A stretch of DNA of 64,000 nt, from sequence record MN850644.1; one strand, given 5' to 3'. Shown here piece after piece: positions 9,023 to 18,976 of this stretch. Each line of letters starts with the position of its first letter. The stretch's first letter is position 1. Both the position numbers and the translations under genes were made by a program. The notes under the pieces were generated by a model. It was not told the DNA's origin, did no database searches, and saw only the letters and a program-made list of their open reading frames with translations. The DNA is from Escherichia phage ekra.

Positions 9023-9292
9023 TTACTTCCTCGTTTTAAGAACTGCTAAGATTTCTTTAGAATCTGGTAAGAACCATGTGTAGTGATTCTCTTTGATTTC
9101 TGGATGAGTGTCAACCTTTATTTTGCACTCTTTACCAACATGTTTAAGCTGTGCTGTGACACCTTGCATAAAGATATGGCACATCACATTATCCATAATG
9201 GTTGGTGAGAAATCAATTCGCATATAAGTCTCTTTTGGTCGTGGTAACAGTAAGTACCCTTCTACGTAAAAAGTATCTTGATTCTCTGTCAT
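9023..9292 (-). CDS. hypothetical protein (89 aa)
   Basis: ORF. Confidence 0.45.
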   Translation of the reverse strand: MTENQDTFYVEGYLLLPRPKETYMRIDFSPTIMDNVMCHIFMQGVTAQLKHVGKECKIKVDTHPEIKENHYTWFLPDSKEILAVLKTRK

Positions 9293-9558
9293 TGCTGCTT
9301 ATTCCCTAATAAAATCATGTCAATAAGGTTGTTAGCTTTGATTGTGCACTGGTAAAAGCCGTCACGATAGAACTCAAGGGCTGCTGCTACATCGCTGCCT
9401 GTGTTGCCTTTGATGATATACCGTGATTCTTCTTGGGTGTACTTATCACCCTCACTTACTTGGGAGTTTTTGAATGTACTGCTCACTTTGTTCGTTGAAC
9501 ACCCTGACATAGTTATCAGTAACACAAACATTATAAAACTCTGGCTTAGTTTTTTCAT
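9289..9558 (-). CDS. putative o-spanin (outer-membrane lipoprotein), start embedded in the i-spanin gene in another frame
   Basis: MKKLSQSFIMFVLLITMSGC: signal peptide plus lipobox-like SGC; overlaps 9452-9799 by about 107 nt. Confidence 0.45.
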   Translation of the reverse strand: MKKLSQSFIMFVLLITMSGCSTNKVSSTFKNSQVSEGDKYTQEESRYIIKGNTGSDVAAALEFYRDGFYQCTIKANNLIDMILLGNKQQ

Positions 9559-9799
9559 ATGTTAGTACCTCTTTTGTATGCTTATTCTTAGCAAGCACAT
9601 CTTTCAAATCATTTTTGTAATTGGTGCTGAGTGTGGCTAAACCTTCCTGATAAGCATCTTTAGCAACACTTATTAGTTTCTCATTATTTAGCTCAGTTTC
9701 AGCAACTTGATAGTCTCTGTAAGAGTATCCTCCCCAGACACCTGCACCAACTAAGAAAACAATTATGAAAGTAGCTTGACAGAACTCTTTAAATGTCAT
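9452..9799 (-). CDS. putative i-spanin (N-terminal TM helix plus periplasmic domain)
   Basis: ATFIIVFLVGAGVWGGY hydrophobic helix near N-terminus; charged helical remainder; overlapping lipoprotein ORF. Confidence 0.45.
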   Translation of the reverse strand: MTFKEFCQATFIIVFLVGAGVWGGYSYRDYQVAETELNNEKLISVAKDAYQEGLATLSTNYKNDLKDVLAKNKHTKEVLTYEKTKPEFYNVCVTDNYVRVFNEQSEQYIQKLPSK

Positions 9800-10326: not shown

Positions 10327-11022
10327 TCAATGTTTAACTAACATGGTTTTAATGTGTGGAAGGATTCTGTTCACCTTCTGCACATTCTTCTCTGTGTCTT
10401 CTATAAAACATACTATATTAAAGTAAGGCAGGATGCAAGACTGAATCATCCTCACTTTCAAACTTTCTGCACTTATAGAGTTAGTTCCAAAACCACGCAT
10501 AAAAAGCATGTAGTCATGCTCTATGTTGTGCCTTAAAAACATCTCAGTAGGTATTCTCTGAGATTCACCTCTCGCTGTCAAGAGTCCAATGGCAGCATGA
10601 TTAGCAATTGCATCAATAATACTAAAGACATACGTTGGTTTTGCTCTTACAGAGTCAAGAAGATTAGTGTACTGTGAGAATGACCCATCAGTCAATTCCG
10701 TTGAGCAATCTTCGTGATTAAAATTTGTAAGAACACCATCAATATCTGCTAAGATGAGGTTACCTTTTTCTACAAGGTCTTTATTGACTATGACTAAGCT
10801 ATCACGACTTACACCTATAGTTTGTCCAGTCTCTTTATCTACAACATTCACAATTGGCTCTGATGTGTGGAACTCTTCGAGTGAACATACAACTTCTCTT
10901 GCAGTGTCTTCAAAATCCCTACACTGTTCTGGAGTCCATACACAGGAATCAAGACCTAACTCATGAGGATGTAAGTCGTAAGCATGACACAGTACTTCAT
11001 CAGACTTTTTTAATTTTTTCAT
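10327..11022 (-). CDS. HAD-superfamily-like hydrolase/phosphatase candidate
   Basis: Motif ILADIDGVL resembles HAD motif I (DxDGT/V); otherwise unassigned. Confidence 0.35.
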   Translation of the reverse strand: MKKLKKSDEVLCHAYDLHPHELGLDSCVWTPEQCRDFEDTAREVVCSLEEFHTSEPIVNVVDKETGQTIGVSRDSLVIVNKDLVEKGNLILADIDGVLTNFNHEDCSTELTDGSFSQYTNLLDSVRAKPTYVFSIIDAIANHAAIGLLTARGESQRIPTEMFLRHNIEHDYMLFMRGFGTNSISAESLKVRMIQSCILPYFNIVCFIEDTEKNVQKVNRILPHIKTMLVKH

Positions 11023-11548
11023 GGTTTACCTTAGAAATGTTTGTTGCAAATTCACATTGAGCAATGACTTTCATGTTGTTATAGACATCTTGAGAATATT
11101 TCTTAGCTTTAGGGATTTTGTACGAATACCCAGCATTATATGATGCTAAAACTTTTTGTAAAGTCTTCTTTGACTTTGGCTGACCATGCACCTTTGTCCA
11201 AAACTCAAGCTCTTTGTGAGTTTCCTTCGCAGCATAGTTAAAGTCTTTTAAGAGTTTCTTTTTAGCCACATTAGGACTAATTTTGTTACGCTTTACAACA
11301 GTCTTCAAGTGATTCTGGAAAATACCATAATCATGTGTCTTTTTATTCTCTACCTTCAGACCTAACTCTGACTCTTGTAAGGCTATAGCAGCTAGAGTGA
11401 TACCCCAACCTTTACCCATGTTGTTCTCACCATACTGGTAAGCTTTTAACATGTTTACTTTTTGGCTAATTGATAGCTCTGGGCAGTCAACTGCATAAGA
11501 TAAGTGTGCTGTAAACATTAAGCACAAACCTAGAATCAATTTCTTCAT
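11000..11548 (-). CDS. Lytic transglycosylase (SLT domain) with N-terminal signal peptide; endolysin candidate
   Basis: MKKLILGLCLMFTAHLSYA signal; SLT motifs AIALQESELG (catalytic Glu-Ser), GIFQ, SYNAGYSY. Confidence 0.65.
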   Translation of the reverse strand: MKKLILGLCLMFTAHLSYAVDCPELSISQKVNMLKAYQYGENNMGKGWGITLAAIALQESELGLKVENKKTHDYGIFQNHLKTVVKRNKISPNVAKKKLLKDFNYAAKETHKELEFWTKVHGQPKSKKTLQKVLASYNAGYSYKIPKAKKYSQDVYNNMKVIAQCEFATNISKVNHEKIKKV

Positions 11549-11612
11549 TGGTTCTCCTGTTTAGTTTATCGTGACAACAATTATACAGTACTCTGCACAA
11601 AATACAAATAAA

Positions 11613-11638
11613 AAAGGCCGCCGAAGCAGCCTTTTAAG
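11613..11638 (-). terminator. Intrinsic terminator hairpin with T-run on minus strand
   Basis: ggccgccgaagcagcc stem-loop flanked by aaaaaa (plus) = tttttt on minus. Confidence 0.5.
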
Positions 11639-11648
11639 AAATTACTTA

Positions 11649-12758
11649 TTAGATTTCACGTTTACGCTGAGAGATGAGTTCCCCAGCAGTGCCAACGATG
11701 ACATGCAAAGCTTCAGTCTTGCCATCCCATGCTTTCAGTACTTTACGTTGATTATCAACGATTGCTGCAACTTCATAACGTGATGAACGCATCTTCATAT
11801 CGTTGTAATCAGTTGGTACGGACACAACATCTCGTGGATGGACACGAACCTTCAGAATTGTATCACCTGAGAAGCAACGAACATAATCCCAAGCACCAAC
11901 ATGAAGACCTTGAGAGCAAGTCATGTTACGGTTATTATCAACCATCCAACGTGGCATTTCTACAATGTTACCCAAATCATTAGGTACTCTGTAGGTGTGG
12001 TAGTCAACCAGCTTGCCTTCACGAGTAGATACTTTCTTCCAACCAATGATGTAGCCTTCTTCATCAATTTCAACATCAAGGTGAGATACGAAGCCCCAAA
12101 GTTGTTCTACGGAATCTTTAGATGGGTTTTCCATCAGTTTTTCGAAGAACATCACAAGGCGTTCGAAACCTTTATCTCCAGTCTTCATCATGTGAAGAAT
12201 ACGGTCAACCAGAGTAGAACGCATCTCAACAGCACCGTAGAATAACTTGTCACCTTTGATGGTGATAGCACCCTGAGTGAAGTTTTCGATAGACTTACGA
12301 ATGTTCATCAGTTCGAAAGCTTTCTTATACTCACCGGATACAACAGCCATCACGATTTCTTTATAGTTCGGATGGGTAGATTCAACGATTTCAGAATCTG
12401 CACCGAAAGTCATGATAACAGAGTCACCAGTAATCATATACTCAATCTGGTTGCCATTCTGCATAGCTTCATGCAGTTTATTTACTGGAGCTTTCTGTAC
12501 AGCGTCTTTAACAACTTTTTCAACTGGCTTGTCAGCTTTCTTTTTAAAAGTCTTAGCAACTTGTTTCAAAGTCTTCGTAGCTGGTGTAGAAGTCGCCTTC
12601 TTATTCCCTTTTAAGGTTGCTTCATGACGCTCTACAGCACGACCGACTGAACGGGTTGAAGTATTAAATTTCTGTGCAATAGCTGTTTTAGTCAGCTTAC
12701 CTTCTTTAACCAGTTTGTAAATTTCTGCGTCAATCTGTGCTTTAGTTTTAGTAGTCAT
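11649..12758 (-). CDS. rIIB-like protein candidate (369 aa) with N-terminal HTH-like segment
   Basis: Positional partner immediately downstream of the rIIA-like gene; similar size class; N-terminus TAIAQKFNTSTRSVGRAV looks helix-turn-helix; no diagnostic motif. Confidence 0.35.
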   Translation of the reverse strand: MTTKTKAQIDAEIYKLVKEGKLTKTAIAQKFNTSTRSVGRAVERHEATLKGNKKATSTPATKTLKQVAKTFKKKADKPVEKVVKDAVQKAPVNKLHEAMQNGNQIEYMITGDSVIMTFGADSEIVESTHPNYKEIVMAVVSGEYKKAFELMNIRKSIENFTQGAITIKGDKLFYGAVEMRSTLVDRILHMMKTGDKGFERLVMFFEKLMENPSKDSVEQLWGFVSHLDVEIDEEGYIIGWKKVSTREGKLVDYHTYRVPNDLGNIVEMPRWMVDNNRNMTCSQGLHVGAWDYVRCFSGDTILKVRVHPRDVVSVPTDYNDMKMRSSRYEVAAIVDNQRKVLKAWDGKTEALHVIVGTAGELISQRKREI

Positions 12759-12839
12759 CTTATTACTCTCTCTCTTGTTAGTTAATAAATCATTTTGTGA
12801 TGCTATTTTAAGGGGTTTTGAAGCCCCTTGTCAAACACT

Positions 12840-15206
12840 TTAATCGTAAATTGTAGTTCCTTCTGGAACACATTTTACATCAAAACCTAAGAACTTACTC
12901 ACTTCGATGGGTGACACTTTATTCCAATCTAAATGAGAAAGCAAGAAGTTTTCTTGTTTTCTTTTTGAAAGATAGTTTGTCACCTTAATAACCATACGGT
13001 CACCAGCTTTCTTAATTTTCTTGTAAAGCTTTGTATCGTTGTCAAGACAGTCTTTCAAAGTTTTCAATACACTAATAGTATAAGTGTATGCAAATGGTGC
13101 AGCAACGTATTGGATTTTACCGAACATTGCCTCTACAGCCTCTTCATTACCTTCTAGGAAGATAGTTTTGTTTGTATCCCGTGAATAGCAATAACCACGA
13201 GAAATCTTCCTATTATTGAATGTAAAGTTTCTGGCAATAATCCAGCTACTTGTAAGGTCAAGAACACCATTCATGTAGATGCGTGTCATATACCTGTTGT
13301 GATTAATCCAATGAACATCAGTTAAGCTGTCGTTCAAGAGCTTCTCATCTACTTCAATCCAGTCTTCTGGTATCTTTTTCCAATTTGCTTTTCGGAAAAC
13401 ATAGACTGTCTTTCCAATAACATTAGTAACTGACTTAGCTACATCTTCTGGGGATGAGCAAAAACATTCACCATCAACTGTGTCACCAATTGCCTTAATG
13501 TAAAGCTGAGGTTCTTCAATTGTGTCTAAGTCCTCTGACACCTCTTTGTAGGAGGCTACACCTTCTGCTGGAACAGCTTTCCAGAGTTTTACAACACCTC
13601 TTACAGCTTCTTTACGCTGGTAATGGTGTTCCTTATCAGACATTTTCACAATCTTTAACAAGCTTTTATCAAGTTTGTGTAGATTGATTAAATCATCTAA
13701 CTCTTTTTCAGTCGAGAATACAAACACAATACCATTATATCTGTGAAACAGACTGGACTCACTGGCGTAGTCTCGACATGCACCACGCAGAATCTGATTG
13801 CGGCCTACAGTCTTCTCAGTACCGTTTTTATTGCGACGGTCATTAATAACAAACAAAAACTGTTCAATTTGACTTTTACGCATTGCACCAAAGATATTGA
13901 ACATACTTGCCTCTTGAGTGTAGGAAAGTGCTGTTGCACGAATCTTACTCTCTAAAGAGTTGAACTTGACATAAGCAACTGGATTGTATAGGTAGTCAAC
14001 TTTAGGGATATTGTTTCCTTTGCTGTCAACCTTAATATTGCCTTTGCCGTCACGTTCATAGACGACTGAGCCGTCTTCTGCGTAGATAATTCCACGACGA
14101 ATGTTTAACAATTCTTCTTCCAGAGAGTCAAGCTTAACACCTCCCCACTCTAACTTTGGACACACAGCATTAAACATCTCTCGTGAGTTCAAACGTAACT
14201 CAGCATAAGCCTGTGCAGCATCCATGAGTGTAGGTTGACTGTTAACTTTCTTGATAACATCCTTTGTAATTGCTTCAGTTATCTTTTTAGTAGCCTCAAT
14301 GATAACATTTTTTGTCGTGTCATTCATCTGCAATGCTTCACGAGAAGCTGCAATAGCGACTGAACCAATAGGCATGTAGATGTTTACAAGGTCTACGCTC
14401 CTACGGAAAAATTCTGGCAAGACTTTGAAGAAATCATCGCCAAGTAATGCTTCCATATTAACTGGGTAGGCAATATTACCCATTACCACATTAAAATCTG
14501 TCCTGTTGCCACTAGAACGCCAGCTTTGCTTATGAATCATAGCATCATAAACACCTTCTTCACGGGCAATGACGTTCATATCTGCTAACACGTCATCATA
14601 CACAATGTTACTTTCTGGTTTTACAGCAAAGTATGAGTATACGTGACCAGCCTCTTCAAAGAACTTTGAGATGCGGTGGTCAGCAACTGCCACACGTACA
14701 GCTAAACCATTAGGTTCTTTTGTTGGGTTAGTTGTCAGCTTAGTTACTTGAGGGATACCATTCTCAAGGTAAACAGAGTACTTATTAACAACACCATCAA
14801 CATAGCTAGATACTGTGAATGACTGAGCAATTGCAAATGGTGACTTTGAGCCGATACCCATTGCACCAATGTAGTCATTGGAGTCATTCTTTGTAGAAGC
14901 CCCGTAGTTTAGGTACAAGCTCATAACTTTGTCATGAGTTAATCCAGTTCCAAAATCACGAACTTCAAAGTAAGGCTCAAAACGAGTAGGTAAATGCACA
15001 TGGAATGGGATGTTCTCTTTTCCAGCTTCTTTCTGAGCATCTACTGCGTTACATGACAGTTCACGAATAACTGCCCTTTCTTTAAATGTGTATACACCAG
15101 AACTCAAAAGGCTGAACATTTCAGGTGTCATTGTAATCTGTGCTTGAGACGTCTCTAAAGAAGTTGAACTCTTAATCACTTCTGCGTGGTCGTTTACCAT
15201 GCGCAT
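12840..15206 (-). CDS. rIIA: rIIA-like protein with N-terminal GHKL/HATPase-type ATPase fold
   Basis: N-box-like ELSCNAVDA and G1-box-like DFGTGLT near N-terminus; 788 aa; adjacent putative rIIB. Confidence 0.5.
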   Translation of the reverse strand: MRMVNDHAEVIKSSTSLETSQAQITMTPEMFSLLSSGVYTFKERAVIRELSCNAVDAQKEAGKENIPFHVHLPTRFEPYFEVRDFGTGLTHDKVMSLYLNYGASTKNDSNDYIGAMGIGSKSPFAIAQSFTVSSYVDGVVNKYSVYLENGIPQVTKLTTNPTKEPNGLAVRVAVADHRISKFFEEAGHVYSYFAVKPESNIVYDDVLADMNVIAREEGVYDAMIHKQSWRSSGNRTDFNVVMGNIAYPVNMEALLGDDFFKVLPEFFRRSVDLVNIYMPIGSVAIAASREALQMNDTTKNVIIEATKKITEAITKDVIKKVNSQPTLMDAAQAYAELRLNSREMFNAVCPKLEWGGVKLDSLEEELLNIRRGIIYAEDGSVVYERDGKGNIKVDSKGNNIPKVDYLYNPVAYVKFNSLESKIRATALSYTQEASMFNIFGAMRKSQIEQFLFVINDRRNKNGTEKTVGRNQILRGACRDYASESSLFHRYNGIVFVFSTEKELDDLINLHKLDKSLLKIVKMSDKEHHYQRKEAVRGVVKLWKAVPAEGVASYKEVSEDLDTIEEPQLYIKAIGDTVDGECFCSSPEDVAKSVTNVIGKTVYVFRKANWKKIPEDWIEVDEKLLNDSLTDVHWINHNRYMTRIYMNGVLDLTSSWIIARNFTFNNRKISRGYCYSRDTNKTIFLEGNEEAVEAMFGKIQYVAAPFAYTYTISVLKTLKDCLDNDTKLYKKIKKAGDRMVIKVTNYLSKRKQENFLLSHLDWNKVSPIEVSKFLGFDVKCVPEGTTIYD

Positions 15207-15392
15207 AATACTTTCCTCTCAGTTTACTGTTAAATTACTTATTAAACATTTTACCAGAACCACCACACATAGGGCAACATCCTGCCCTTATGTACCCCTC
15301 TCCATTACAGTAGTCACATTTTTTGTGCTCTGCAAAGTACTTGCAAAGGAGGTAGACAAATACTGCTACACTACCAAGTGACAGTAAAATTT

Positions 15393-15728
15393 CTATCCAA
15401 TATGCTTGCATGACTCACCTCTCATATTCTTGTAAAGGATAAAGCTTCTGTCATGGACGATACTTGTAGACACTGCAAAGTTACTTTCAAGCATCTGTTT
15501 GTTTGGATTGTAGAAGCTTCCTTTAAACTCGTCAAGTGCAAATTGGTGATTATCTGGAAGACCTTTTACACAGACCTTTATTGTAATTGCTGCTGCGACC
15601 TTGCCAGTCAGTTCTTCTTTAGCTGCTACTAAAATTTTGTTAAGAAACTTATGGCCATCTTCAGGCTTCTTGATGTTCTCCCAACGTTCTTCTAAGACAA
15701 TGTTGATGTTCATCTCTTTGATTTTCAT
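15393..15728 (-). CDS. hypothetical protein (111 aa)
   Basis: ORF. Confidence 0.5.
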   Translation of the reverse strand: MKIKEMNINIVLEERWENIKKPEDGHKFLNKILVAAKEELTGKVAAAITIKVCVKGLPDNHQFALDEFKGSFYNPNKQMLESNFAVSTSIVHDRSFILYKNMRGESCKHIG

Positions 15729-15781: not shown

Positions 15782-17467
15782 TTAAAGCTGCTTGTCAATA
15801 TTATTTCGAATATCACCAAGAGTTGTGTAACCAAACTGCTCAGAGTCACTAAAGACTAAACGTAAAGCACAAGCTGGGTGGTCAAGTACATCTGCAAAAC
15901 TCTGGAATCCATAGCCATCTACAGCTTTCAGCTTACCACCATCCCACATAGGTGCTACACCACCAAAGGCAGATTTCTTAACACCACTATCTGTTTTAGG
16001 GTCTTTTGCAAGCATAATCTCTTTACCACCAATGCTTGCAAGAGTTGCTTTGACAGCAAATGCAAAGGTGTCACGAGTCATGTACTGGTAAGTGTAAGAA
16101 CCTACGCCAAACACTACGTTAGAGCTTGCAAAACCCATTTCATACAGACGCTTCAGGATTTCGTTTGCACGTTCCAGCGTGATAGAGTCACCATAGATAA
16201 GTCCGATATGCTCATCCAGTACCTTAAACCCTTTAGAGTTAATAGTTCCCCCAAAGATGTTGTACAGTGTCTTAATAGCTCCATCAATCTCAGCTACAGG
16301 ACGTGTTACAACGTTTGCAGAACCAACCATATAAGCATTTTTCAACATCACTGTATCAGCAACTTCAAAGTCTTCTCTGTCAACAACCATTTCGTAGCCT
16401 TCTGACAGTAGCCATCCAGCAATACCATAGTTGATATTTTCAAGCTTCATGTTCAGAACAGCATTCAACATTGTGTCACTGGCTTCCAGCTTGCTTAGGT
16501 GCTCGTAATAAGCCTTTTTAGCACATTCTAAGTGGATTGCTTTATAACCTGTGACAATATGTACAGGGTCTCCAGAGTCAGGACGAATTACCAGTTTGCC
16601 ATCACGTTCCATAATTTCTTTACGAAGTGCTGGTAAAATTTCTGACACAGTTCTCCAGAAGTTATAAGTGTCTGAAACAACACTTGCAATACCAGTTGGG
16701 TAAGTTTCTGTTAAGAAACGACGGAAGGTTTGTAACTCACCTTTAAAGCGTCTTTCTTCTTCAATCAACTCATTACCACCTTCCCAAGCAATGTTTGCAC
16801 ACATTACAGAGTGCTCAGTGGCTGGTACAGAACCACCAATATCAGAGATTGGGTAAGACTGCCCGTAGATGCGTTTAGCTGTATATACAGCAGGGAAGCT
16901 ATCAGTTCCTTTAAAGCTGGTTAAGTGGCCTACAGCATTAAATGCGTCATCAGTAAAGCCGGACATACCACGCATAGCAAAGTCATGGCACTGATAAGGC
17001 AAATGTAAGTCGTTGTCACAAGTAAGGTCAGCCCACTTCTTACAGATACGTTTGTAGTGTAATGCAATAGTTGCAATGGTACAAGCCTTCCAAATCTCAG
17101 CAGAAAAAGCATCTTCCAGATACCCCGCTACCCAATGGAAACCTGAAACAGTGTTCTGGAAGACAATCATTGGCACACGCATAGGGACAACTGTGCCTTC
17201 TTCTACAGCGTATACTTCAACTGGCAGATAACCCAAGTCGTGAAGTGCTTCCCAATGCTCTCGACCGATAGCATCTTTACCCAGAACACCATTCATGACT
17301 TCTAAGATTTCGTCAATTGCTTCTTTTTTATCACGTTCAAAGAAGGTGGCATTCCAATGGTCTATCAAGTAATCTTTAACAAAACGTTGAATACCAAAAG
17401 CCACTACACCGTCAATTGCCAAAGGGCTGTTAAACCATTTGTCGCTACGTGGTGTCAGGTTCAACAT
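15782..17467 (-). CDS. Nicotinamide phosphoribosyltransferase (NAMPT/NadV) family protein; may be a nicotinamide ADP-ribose transferase of a phage NAD+ reconstitution pathway
   Basis: Matches recalled NAMPT motifs: IRPDSGDP, GDS...GVGSY, KDPKTDSGVKKSAFGG; 561 aa. Confidence 0.8.
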   Translation of the reverse strand: MLNLTPRSDKWFNSPLAIDGVVAFGIQRFVKDYLIDHWNATFFERDKKEAIDEILEVMNGVLGKDAIGREHWEALHDLGYLPVEVYAVEEGTVVPMRVPMIVFQNTVSGFHWVAGYLEDAFSAEIWKACTIATIALHYKRICKKWADLTCDNDLHLPYQCHDFAMRGMSGFTDDAFNAVGHLTSFKGTDSFPAVYTAKRIYGQSYPISDIGGSVPATEHSVMCANIAWEGGNELIEEERRFKGELQTFRRFLTETYPTGIASVVSDTYNFWRTVSEILPALRKEIMERDGKLVIRPDSGDPVHIVTGYKAIHLECAKKAYYEHLSKLEASDTMLNAVLNMKLENINYGIAGWLLSEGYEMVVDREDFEVADTVMLKNAYMVGSANVVTRPVAEIDGAIKTLYNIFGGTINSKGFKVLDEHIGLIYGDSITLERANEILKRLYEMGFASSNVVFGVGSYTYQYMTRDTFAFAVKATLASIGGKEIMLAKDPKTDSGVKKSAFGGVAPMWDGGKLKAVDGYGFQSFADVLDHPACALRLVFSDSEQFGYTTLGDIRNNIDKQL

Positions 17468-17579: not shown

Positions 17580-18071
17580 TTAGTTATGTCTTGCAAACTC
17601 ACCATGAAGTTCTATTCGCTTTTTAATTACAGCTTCTTTTGCTTCTTCTACCGTTTTAAATCTTCCACAAAAGTATTCTTTATGGTAAAGCATGACTCTT
17701 GCTTTGTAAAGACCTGTTTGTTTACAAAAACTTACACCCTTCACACCAGTTTTATTATTCTTGTATATACCTCTATTCCTCTGATTTTGTGACTTTGTGC
17801 TAAGTCTTAAATTCTCCAACTTATTATTAGATTTATCAAGGTCTATGTGGTCTATCTCATATCCACTTGGTATCTCACCTCCAGACATAATCCATGCAAT
17901 ATTATGTGCATAGTACCTCTTCTTATTTATCTGGACTTGGATATAACCCTTCTTAGACCTTGTGCCAGCCACATTACCAGCAATAGCGGTACTGCAAAGG
18001 GTTACTCTCCAAATTAATAAACCTGTATCTGGTTCATATATTAGGTATCTTTCAAAATAACCCTTATTCAT
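17580..18071 (-). CDS. Free-standing HNH homing endonuclease with AP2-type DNA-binding domain
   Basis: YAHNIAWIM...EIDHIDLDKSNNKLENLRL (HNH) and NKTGVKGVSF...YKARV (AP2); paralogous to 30369-30869 and 40472-40984. Confidence 0.75.
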   Translation of the reverse strand: MNKGYFERYLIYEPDTGLLIWRVTLCSTAIAGNVAGTRSKKGYIQVQINKKRYYAHNIAWIMSGGEIPSGYEIDHIDLDKSNNKLENLRLSTKSQNQRNRGIYKNNKTGVKGVSFCKQTGLYKARVMLYHKEYFCGRFKTVEEAKEAVIKKRIELHGEFARHN

Positions 18072-18079
18072 ACTGTTAC

Positions 18080-18976
18080 CTAATCAATGTTTGCTACAGT
18101 AACTTGACCATAATGTGTTAAGCCACGGTCTTTAGCTTCTCCTAAAGAGTTTGTAGTGTAGATATGGTCAATACCATTGCCAAGTAAGTTTTCAACCCCT
18201 TTAGAGAAAATGCCATGAGTTACATAGAGTTCCACACGTTTTGCACCTGCTTCACGTAGGTGTTTAGCTGCCTCTACGAAGGTTCGACCACCATCACAGA
18301 TATCATCAAGAATCATGACAGTTTTATCGGTCAAATCAACATCGTCAAGGATTCGCATACCAGTGATTTCTCCAGTCTTAAGATTGCGCACCTTAGACAT
18401 TGTGATATATGGTTTATCCACCTCTTTAGCGGCATCTTCAGTCTTCTTAGCTGCACCTGCATCTGGGGCTACCAAGAAATCAATGCGTGGGTCACTTGCA
18501 AAGTGTACTGCCACATCTTTTTGCTTCATGCTCTGAAAACACTTAAATAAGTTTTCTGCAACATTACTGTGAGGGTCAAGAGCACATACTGCATCAAAAC
18601 CCATTGCATTAACGAGGTTGGCAAAAACTTTCAGTGCTGCTGCATCACCTTTGAACATATGGCGGTCATATCGAGCATTTGGTAAGAACCCGAAAACAAC
18701 GGTTTTCATCGCTGATTTATAGGGAACAAGACTATCAACGGCATCCTTAGCCAAAGCTAATGCAAACAGTGTATCTTTGTCATATCCCTGTACAGTAATT
18801 ATAACATTATCAATCTTACCAGCATTACGCTCAGTAAACTTAACAAAATCTTCAGAGAAGTTTCCACCAATTTCTCCAGATGGGAATTGAATGATATTAA
18901 ATTTTTCTGTGTGGAAGAATTTCTCTTGTGCGGTGACGACGGCTTCAATAACAGTTTTCATAGTTTTCTCTCTCAA
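18080..18976 (-). CDS. Ribose-phosphate pyrophosphokinase (PRPP synthetase, Prs)-like protein; may be an ADP-ribose pyrophosphokinase
   Basis: PRPP-binding-type motif MILDDICDGGRT (DDIxDxGxT); 298 aa; beside NAMPT-like gene. Confidence 0.75.
   Translation of the reverse strand: MREKTMKTVIEAVVTAQEKFFHTEKFNIIQFPSGEIGGNFSEDFVKFTERNAGKIDNVIITVQGYDKDTLFALALAKDAVDSLVPYKSAMKTVVFGFLPNARYDRHMFKGDAAALKVFANLVNAMGFDAVCALDPHSNVAENLFKCFQSMKQKDVAVHFASDPRIDFLVAPDAGAAKKTEDAAKEVDKPYITMSKVRNLKTGEITGMRILDDVDLTDKTVMILDDICDGGRTFVEAAKHLREAGAKRVELYVTHGIFSKGVENLLGNGIDHIYTTNSLGEAKDRGLTHYGQVTVANID

Follow-up and report, generated by a model that had tools for sequence, protein, structure and literature searches.

Two neighbouring open reading frames (ORFs) on the minus strand of Escherichia phage ekra raise the question of whether this phage carries an rII system related to that of T4 and, if so, what the two proteins do for it. 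The window analysed here is the whole 64,000-nucleotide stretch of sequence record MN850644.1, and its ORF list places one frame at 12840..15206 (788 aa) and the other at 11649..12758 (369 aa), exactly where a sequence-only reading of the window had put them. That reading called the first protein rIIA-like from its motifs and the second rIIB from synteny only, and proposed a profile search against both families. When this search was performed both proteins matched. The 788-aa protein gave an E-value of 4.2e-189 against phrog_612 'RIIA', with residues 1-770 aligned to positions 1-716 of the 725-column profile (T4 rIIA itself scores 9e-250), and pairwise comparison with T4 rIIA (NP_049616) showed 32% identity over 306 aa (E 2e-37) in the N-terminal module only. 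The 369-aa protein matched phrog_609 'RIIB' with an E-value of 6.4e-88 and showed 41% identity to T4 rIIB (NP_049889) over 261 aa (E 6e-61), so that its identity as rIIB no longer rests on synteny. The two sequences are letter-for-letter those of QHR75224.1 'rIIA protein' and QHR75223.1 'rIIB protein' of Escherichia phage ekra, and they belong to 90%-identity clusters with 1,411 and 1,018 members, respectively; homologues of rIIB carry Pfam domain PF26926. Both T4 rIIA and T4 rIIB match the 1055-column phrog_609 profile because a RIIA-RIIB fusion occurs in nature, as in the 1049-aa protein of RB43. The assignment is thus correct but ordinary: the exact sequences of the locus and the names of its genes are on record already, and these textbook genes, whose orthologues have been genetically tested, bring no new kind of element.

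Matches to the 3.56-kb rII locus occur in 277 phage records, and in about 210 of these the match covers at least 80% of the locus. With few exceptions, these 210 are Felixounavirus-type (Felix O1-like) phages of Escherichia, Salmonella and Shigella, and the full-length Felixounavirus matches share approximately 91.9-96.5% DNA identity over the whole 3,558 bp. Among the matches listed, nearly every annotated record names the pair rIIA/rIIB, with a few labelled 'hypothetical'. The loci of Felix O1 (AF320576), VpaE1, Alf5, Barry and heid have the same gene order and show no difference of substance. SUSP1, which belongs to another genus of the same subfamily, Ounavirinae, encodes full-length orthologues with 62.8% (rIIA) and 80.9% (rIIB) identity in an identical flanking gene order from NAMPT through the spanins, the C-terminal region of rIIA being the part that has diverged most. 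Phage Bas63 (JohannRWettstein), in which g85 and g84 are rIIA and rIIB, shares with ekra both the genus Felixounavirus and the locus.

The GHKL motifs that the sequence-only reading had recognised in rIIA are genuine, and a third one is present. Translation of the gene was used to check the N-box ELSCNAVDA at residues 49-57 (15036..15062, minus strand), the G1-box DFGTGLT at residues 84-90 (14937..14957, minus strand) and the additional G2-box GAMGIGSKS at residues 114-122 (14841..14867, minus strand). All three lie in the conserved part of the protein, residues 24-325 (14232..15137, minus strand), which comprises a Bergerat-fold ATP-binding domain and a transducer-like second domain. In an alignment of 80 rIIA homologues, the most distant of them at about 22% identity, the residues E49, N53 and D56 of the N-box, D84 and G86 of G1, and G114, G117, G119 and K121 of G2 do not vary, and G88 of G1 is at least 90% conserved. 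With its Bergerat fold and its N-box (ExxxNxxD), G1 (DxGxG) and G2 (GxxGxG) motifs, rIIA falls within the GHKL superfamily. Equally unvarying in these homologues are R289 and E290 of an ASRE motif at residues 287-290 (14337..14348, minus strand), which the secondary structure of the model places in the second domain. By analogy with GHL ATPases, we take this motif to be a candidate gamma-phosphate sensor, comparable with Arg380 of Hsp90 or Lys307 of MutL. Conservation is limited to approximately the first 300 residues, while the C-terminal 460 vary; the C-terminal region (residues 326-788; 12843..14231, minus strand) is confidently folded and poorly conserved, and no solved structural relative was found for it. 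The T4 rIIA family is built in this way, with a GHKL ATPase domain at the N-terminus and a variable region at the C-terminus, and rIIA has been described likewise in the literature (PMC7824862).

The Pfam HATPase_c model alone gave no significant match to rIIA (E 0.21), and the GHKL assignment therefore needs evidence from profiles and structures. NCBIfam models matched residues 30-134 (HSP90 family, E 3e-11; sacsin ATP-binding domain, E 5e-7). A PDB search with the single rIIA sequence found no match; the rIIA family profile matched the solved structures of TRAP1 and HtpG with an E-value of 1.7e-5, over an alignment spanning the Hsp90-like 'LYsnK..IRELisNasD' stretch of the profile, and the rIIA N-box aligned with the Hsp90/TRAP1 motif RELISNGSDA. 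A precomputed PF13589 match is also available for some rIIA homologues. Taken together, these matches identify the conserved module as an ATP-binding plus transducer-like domain of the gyrase/Hsp90/MutL class. rIIA is thus an Hsp90/MutL/MORC-type GHKL ATPase with intact ATP-binding motifs, from which we infer that it would bind and hydrolyse ATP; no demonstration of ATP hydrolysis by any rIIA was found in the literature searched. Identity with Hsp90 proper was considered and rejected: the NCBIfam HSP90 match scores only 42.5 bits where the cut-off is 455 and covers residues 30-134 alone, no Hsp90 match is seen in the C-terminal region and the other Hsp90 domains are absent. rIIA would work like a GHL ATPase and is not an Hsp90. 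Its identity to members of the GHL class (Hsp90/TRAP1/HtpG, MutL, MORC, the ATPase domains of type II topoisomerases, and sacsin) is only 11-17%, and it lacks the C-terminal dimerisation domain of Hsp90, the MutL endonuclease and a Toprim domain. Unlike these enzymes it carries a phage-specific variable C-terminal region, and its ATPase activity is a predicted one. The single match that PADLOC gave, of the GHKL domain to TmtA (E 1.3e-8), was taken to reflect a common domain and not decoy mimicry.

For rIIB, an AlphaFold2 model with a mean pLDDT of 85.2 showed three parts. Residues 6-49 (12612..12743, minus strand) form a three-helix helix-turn-helix (HTH) domain with a pI of about 10; residues 52-91 (12486..12605, minus strand) form a disordered linker rich in Lys, Thr and Ala, with pLDDT values of 40-44 (computed pI of 10.3 for residues 51-92); and residues 92-369 (11652..12485, minus strand) form a well-folded, conserved alpha/beta body that is the family-defining domain. 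In an alignment of 94 homologues, residues F204, G235, C281, G284, Y292, P308, P315, K322 and R324 are invariant across the family, and the CSxGLHV motif of the body (nt 11898-11918) contains both the invariant C281 and H286, a residue conserved to at least 90%. Of the three parts, the HTH is conserved least and is the least constant, with an alignment occupancy of 0.42-0.50, and many homologues start straight at the body domain without it; Pfam gave only weak HTH matches. A Foldseek search of BFVD returned 32 matches at E<=1e-3, with E-values ranging from 1e-40 to 1e-11. Several were labelled 'Uncharacterized protein', and those with names were rIIB/rII proteins except for one 'Transposase' from Sphingobium phage Lacusarx, so the predicted fold is common to other rIIB proteins. 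Neither the single rIIB sequence nor the rIIB family profile found any match in the PDB.

The arrangement of the two genes argues for a partnership. rIIA lies directly upstream of rIIB on the same strand, with an 81-nt spacer between them, and purine-rich Shine-Dalgarno sequences precede both. Sigma-70-like promoters are present in the rII context, and the spacer itself contains a near-consensus candidate of this type, TTGACA-18-TAAAAT (12805..12834, minus strand), called by consensus match; inside the promoter spacer lies the hairpin GGGGCTTCAAAACCCC (minus strand). Beyond rIIB, 13 nt past its stop codon, a hairpin with a 10-bp stem and a T-run (11612..11635, minus strand) resembles an intrinsic terminator and is a candidate for one on the same kind of match; a terminator is annotated at the matching place in the record of phage Barry. 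That such a hairpin is found only 3' of rIIB, together with the adjacency and common orientation of the genes and the natural RIIA-RIIB fusion of RB43, points to rIIA and rIIB being partners, and their joint action is well supported.

What this pair does can be read from its orthologues. The rII genes of T4, MM02, EdH4, SUSP1 and N4 are required against lambda RexAB, the need for SUSP1 rIIA and rIIB having been shown by CRISPRi-ART (PMC11879866). Bas63 lacking g84 or g85 plates 1e4-1e5-fold lower on a host with QatABCD, and complementation restores plating (bioRxiv 10.1101/2024.10.10.617714). Knockdown or deletion of rII in the five phages and in Bas63 caused no defect where no defence system was present (PMC11879866; bioRxiv 10.1101/2024.10.10.617714), and T4 rII mutants likewise fail on hosts with a defence system and grow on naive hosts. 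Going by these orthologues, each rII gene is probably required individually against RexAB or QatABCD. We therefore consider it very probable that the ekra pair are Felixounavirus rIIA/rIIB orthologues forming an early two-protein counter-defence module, dispensable on naive hosts and needed to stop abortive-infection systems of the host or of a prophage from firing, among them lambda RexAB and, in this genus, QatABCD.

Two other roles have to be weighed against this one. PHROGs and RefSeq name the products 'RIIA/RIIB lysis inhibitor', and downstream of rIIB lie an SLT-like 'putative lysin' directly next to the pair and, three to four genes further on, an Rz-like and o-spanin pair, all of which would suit true lysis inhibitors that delay holin-mediated lysis within the phage's own timing circuit. 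A polynucleotide kinase is also encoded downstream. The product name is a historical one, however. T4 needs rI, rIII and the T holin for lysis inhibition, and whether its rII mutants lyse rapidly depends on the host and on the prophages present. When rII was lost from the five phages or from Bas63, no phenotype was seen on defence-free hosts, which contradicts a role in lysis timing, and neither rIIA nor rIIB has a transmembrane (TM) segment or a signal peptide, which leaves this role highly improbable. No hydrophobic segment was found that would account for the description of rII as 'membrane-associated' either, the maximum 19-residue Kyte-Doolittle mean being 1.29 for rIIA and 0.78 for rIIB.

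The second role is prompted by the HTH of rIIB and by Iyer et al.: rIIB would be mainly a DNA-binding transcription factor which, with a MORC- or topoisomerase-like rIIA, reprograms DNA topology or the transcription of phage or host, escape from Rex and Qat being indirect. By sequence, however, rIIA is nearest to the Hsp90/sacsin chaperone branch and not to the DNA enzymes. Frameshifts and deletion are tolerated at the N-terminal end of T4 rIIB, the r1589 fusion being an example. Since classical genetics thus makes the T4 rIIB N-terminus dispensable, and since no other part of rIIB is as inconstant as the HTH, with its low occupancy and the many homologues that begin at the body domain, a transcription-factor role is weakened, and we regard it as distinctly unlikely.

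The surroundings of the pair are consistent with the preferred counter-defence reading. The rII genes lie within a long minus-strand block, in which the genes upstream of rIIA encode NAMPT (15782..17467), an HNH-AP2 homing endonuclease (17580..18071), a ribose-phosphate pyrophosphokinase-like (PRPP-synthetase-like) protein (18080..18976) and, beyond these, anaerobic and aerobic ribonucleotide reductases. NAMPT and the PRPP-synthetase-like gene make up an NAD+ salvage pair; in Bas63, where the NAD+ biosynthesis genes g79/g80 lie a few genes from g84/g85, this pair counters Sir2-HerA. The Bas63 result indicates that the rII neighbourhood holds another counter-defence module beside its nucleotide-metabolism genes. 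A small ORF upstream of rIIA, encoding a TM segment and a zinc finger, was considered as a possible counterpart of T4 rIIA.1, which would have made it a conserved third member of the rII system, and this reading was rejected; T4 rIIA.1, the upstream neighbour in that phage, is a soluble helical protein unrelated to it.

How the module would act can be proposed in outline. rIIA would be an ATP-driven dimerising clamp, after the manner of other GHL ATPases, and rIIB its obligate partner; their complex would act upstream of the effector, be it a membrane protein or a nuclease, by binding and neutralising the defence sensor or else the infection-specific signal to which that sensor responds, and the variable C-terminal region of rIIA may set which defence systems are countered. 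We put this scheme of a clamp and a partner forward as a tentative and, taken as a whole, doubtful one, since none of the papers found gives a molecular mechanism for rII. The T6 rIIB protein alone is toxic on expression and sets off a CARD-gasdermin defence (PMC10312443), and for this reason an independent activity of rIIB may exist. For lambda, DNA binding by RexA, its proposed trigger, does not correlate simply with exclusion (RexA structure, PMC11077077). Separately, the authors of PhageMaP have proposed that rII acts at the level of membrane depolarisation, a proposal that stands against the lack of a TM segment in either protein. A further idea, which concerns the rII family as a whole, is that the structurally orphan rIIB body, which carries the invariant Cys281 and the near-invariant His286, might have enzymatic activity or bind a specific ligand and not be a passive adaptor; rIIA might then be a clamp of the Hsp90 kind, driven by ATP, that serves to load or regulate this body. 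We think this rather unlikely. Were it true, the Felixounavirus rII genes, active against QatABCD and Rex-type exclusion, would open a second, tractable way into the mechanism.

rII is among the oldest genetic systems in biology, and its mechanism is a matter for the whole family and not for this window. The anatomy described above supplies a set of point mutants for any rII system: the Hsp90-like ATP site and R289/E290 of rIIA, and the HTH, linker and Cys-bearing orphan body of rIIB. Both protein families (phrog_612 and phrog_609), the gene order, the orientation and the GHKL motifs are as in T4, the rIIB bodies are 41% identical, and an N-terminal DNA-binding-type domain is found in both rIIB proteins. 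The ekra rIIA and rIIB are longer than their T4 counterparts by 63 and 57 aa, respectively, and pairwise similarity between the rIIA proteins is detectable only at residues 24-317, the C-terminal 460 aa being related at profile level only. The 32-41% identity that we measured between Ounavirinae and T4 clashes with the '>80% homology to T4 RIIA/B' given in the Bas63 paper. Within Felixounavirus, some records place the start of rIIA two codons later than in ekra, giving a protein of 786 aa in Barry.

The 81-nt spacer between rIIA (12840..15206, minus strand) and rIIB (11649..12758, minus strand), which spans 12759..12839, was found to contain a near-consensus sigma-70-like promoter on the minus strand at 12805..12834. 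Its boxes, TTGACA-18-TAAAAT, match the consensus at 11 of 12 positions, and rIIB may therefore be served by a candidate promoter of its own. The 18-nt stretch separating the two boxes forms a GC-rich hairpin, GGGGCTTCAAAACCCC, which may alternatively act as an attenuator or an RNA-stability element.

Directly upstream of rIIA lies a 58-aa ORF (15235..15411, minus strand), too short for the ORF-list cutoff and overlapping the end of a 111-aa ORF. The encoded protein has a hydrophobic helix at its N-terminus (Kyte-Doolittle mean of 2.11 over 19 residues) followed by two CxxCxGxG motifs of the DnaJ zinc-finger type; the match to Pfam DnaJ_CXXCXGXG (E 0.003) was below the cut-off. The related phage SUSP1, from another genus of the Ounavirinae, keeps a counterpart, agp080, labelled "hypothetical", while in the Felixounavirus-type phage heid the ORF is without annotation. 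T4 rIIA.1 occupies the equivalent position, yet is unrelated.

Two genes upstream of rIIA, the minus strand encodes a pair of proteins: NAMPT (15782..17467), which matches phrog_448 at E 1e-190, and a ribose-phosphate pyrophosphokinase-like protein (18080..18976), which matches phrog_619 at E 2e-99. An HNH_3 + AP2 homing endonuclease gene (17580..18071, minus strand) lies between the two. In the Felixounavirus Bas63, the NAD+ biosynthesis genes g79 and g80 counter Sir2-HerA, the Ec86 retron and hhe. By analogy with this activity, the pair is assigned as a second counter-defence module. On the downstream side of the rII genes, two overlapping minus-strand ORFs (9289..9558 and 9452..9799) were considered spanin-like from their position and length, by which they correspond to the "putative o-spanin" and "Rz-like spanin" of SUSP1; the 89-aa member carries a lipoprotein-type signal, LLITMSGC. 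The interval from this pair to rIIB is occupied by a polynucleotide kinase gene (10327..11022) and a gene at 11000..11548 whose SLT-like product has a signal-like sequence at its N-terminus and is named "putative lysin" in heid.

The Bas63 rII proteins are described in the PhageMaP preprint as having "high sequence homology (>80%)" to T4 RIIA/B (bioRxiv 10.1101/2024.10.10.617714), whereas the identities we measured between Ounavirinae and T4 proteins were 32% for rIIA, over the N-terminal part only, and 40-41% for rIIB. From these alignments, the published figure appears to be wrong or to mean something besides identity. A natural RIIA-RIIB fusion of 1049 aa occurs in Escherichia phage RB43 (BFVD Q56C47), and this protein probably explains why the "RIIB" profile phrog_609 has 1055 columns and also matches rIIA N-terminal domains. 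PHROGs-based annotation pipelines could mislabel rIIA fragments as RIIB.

The best DNA match in the phage collection was 96.5%, ekra itself being apparently missing from that collection, although the rII proteins match phage ekra proteins exactly. No tRNA genes were found within the 64-kb window, whereas SUSP1 has a 19-tRNA block elsewhere in its genome. The sign of the GC skew flips at ~38 kb and again at ~48-50 kb, delimiting a plus-strand gene block flanked by minus-strand blocks.
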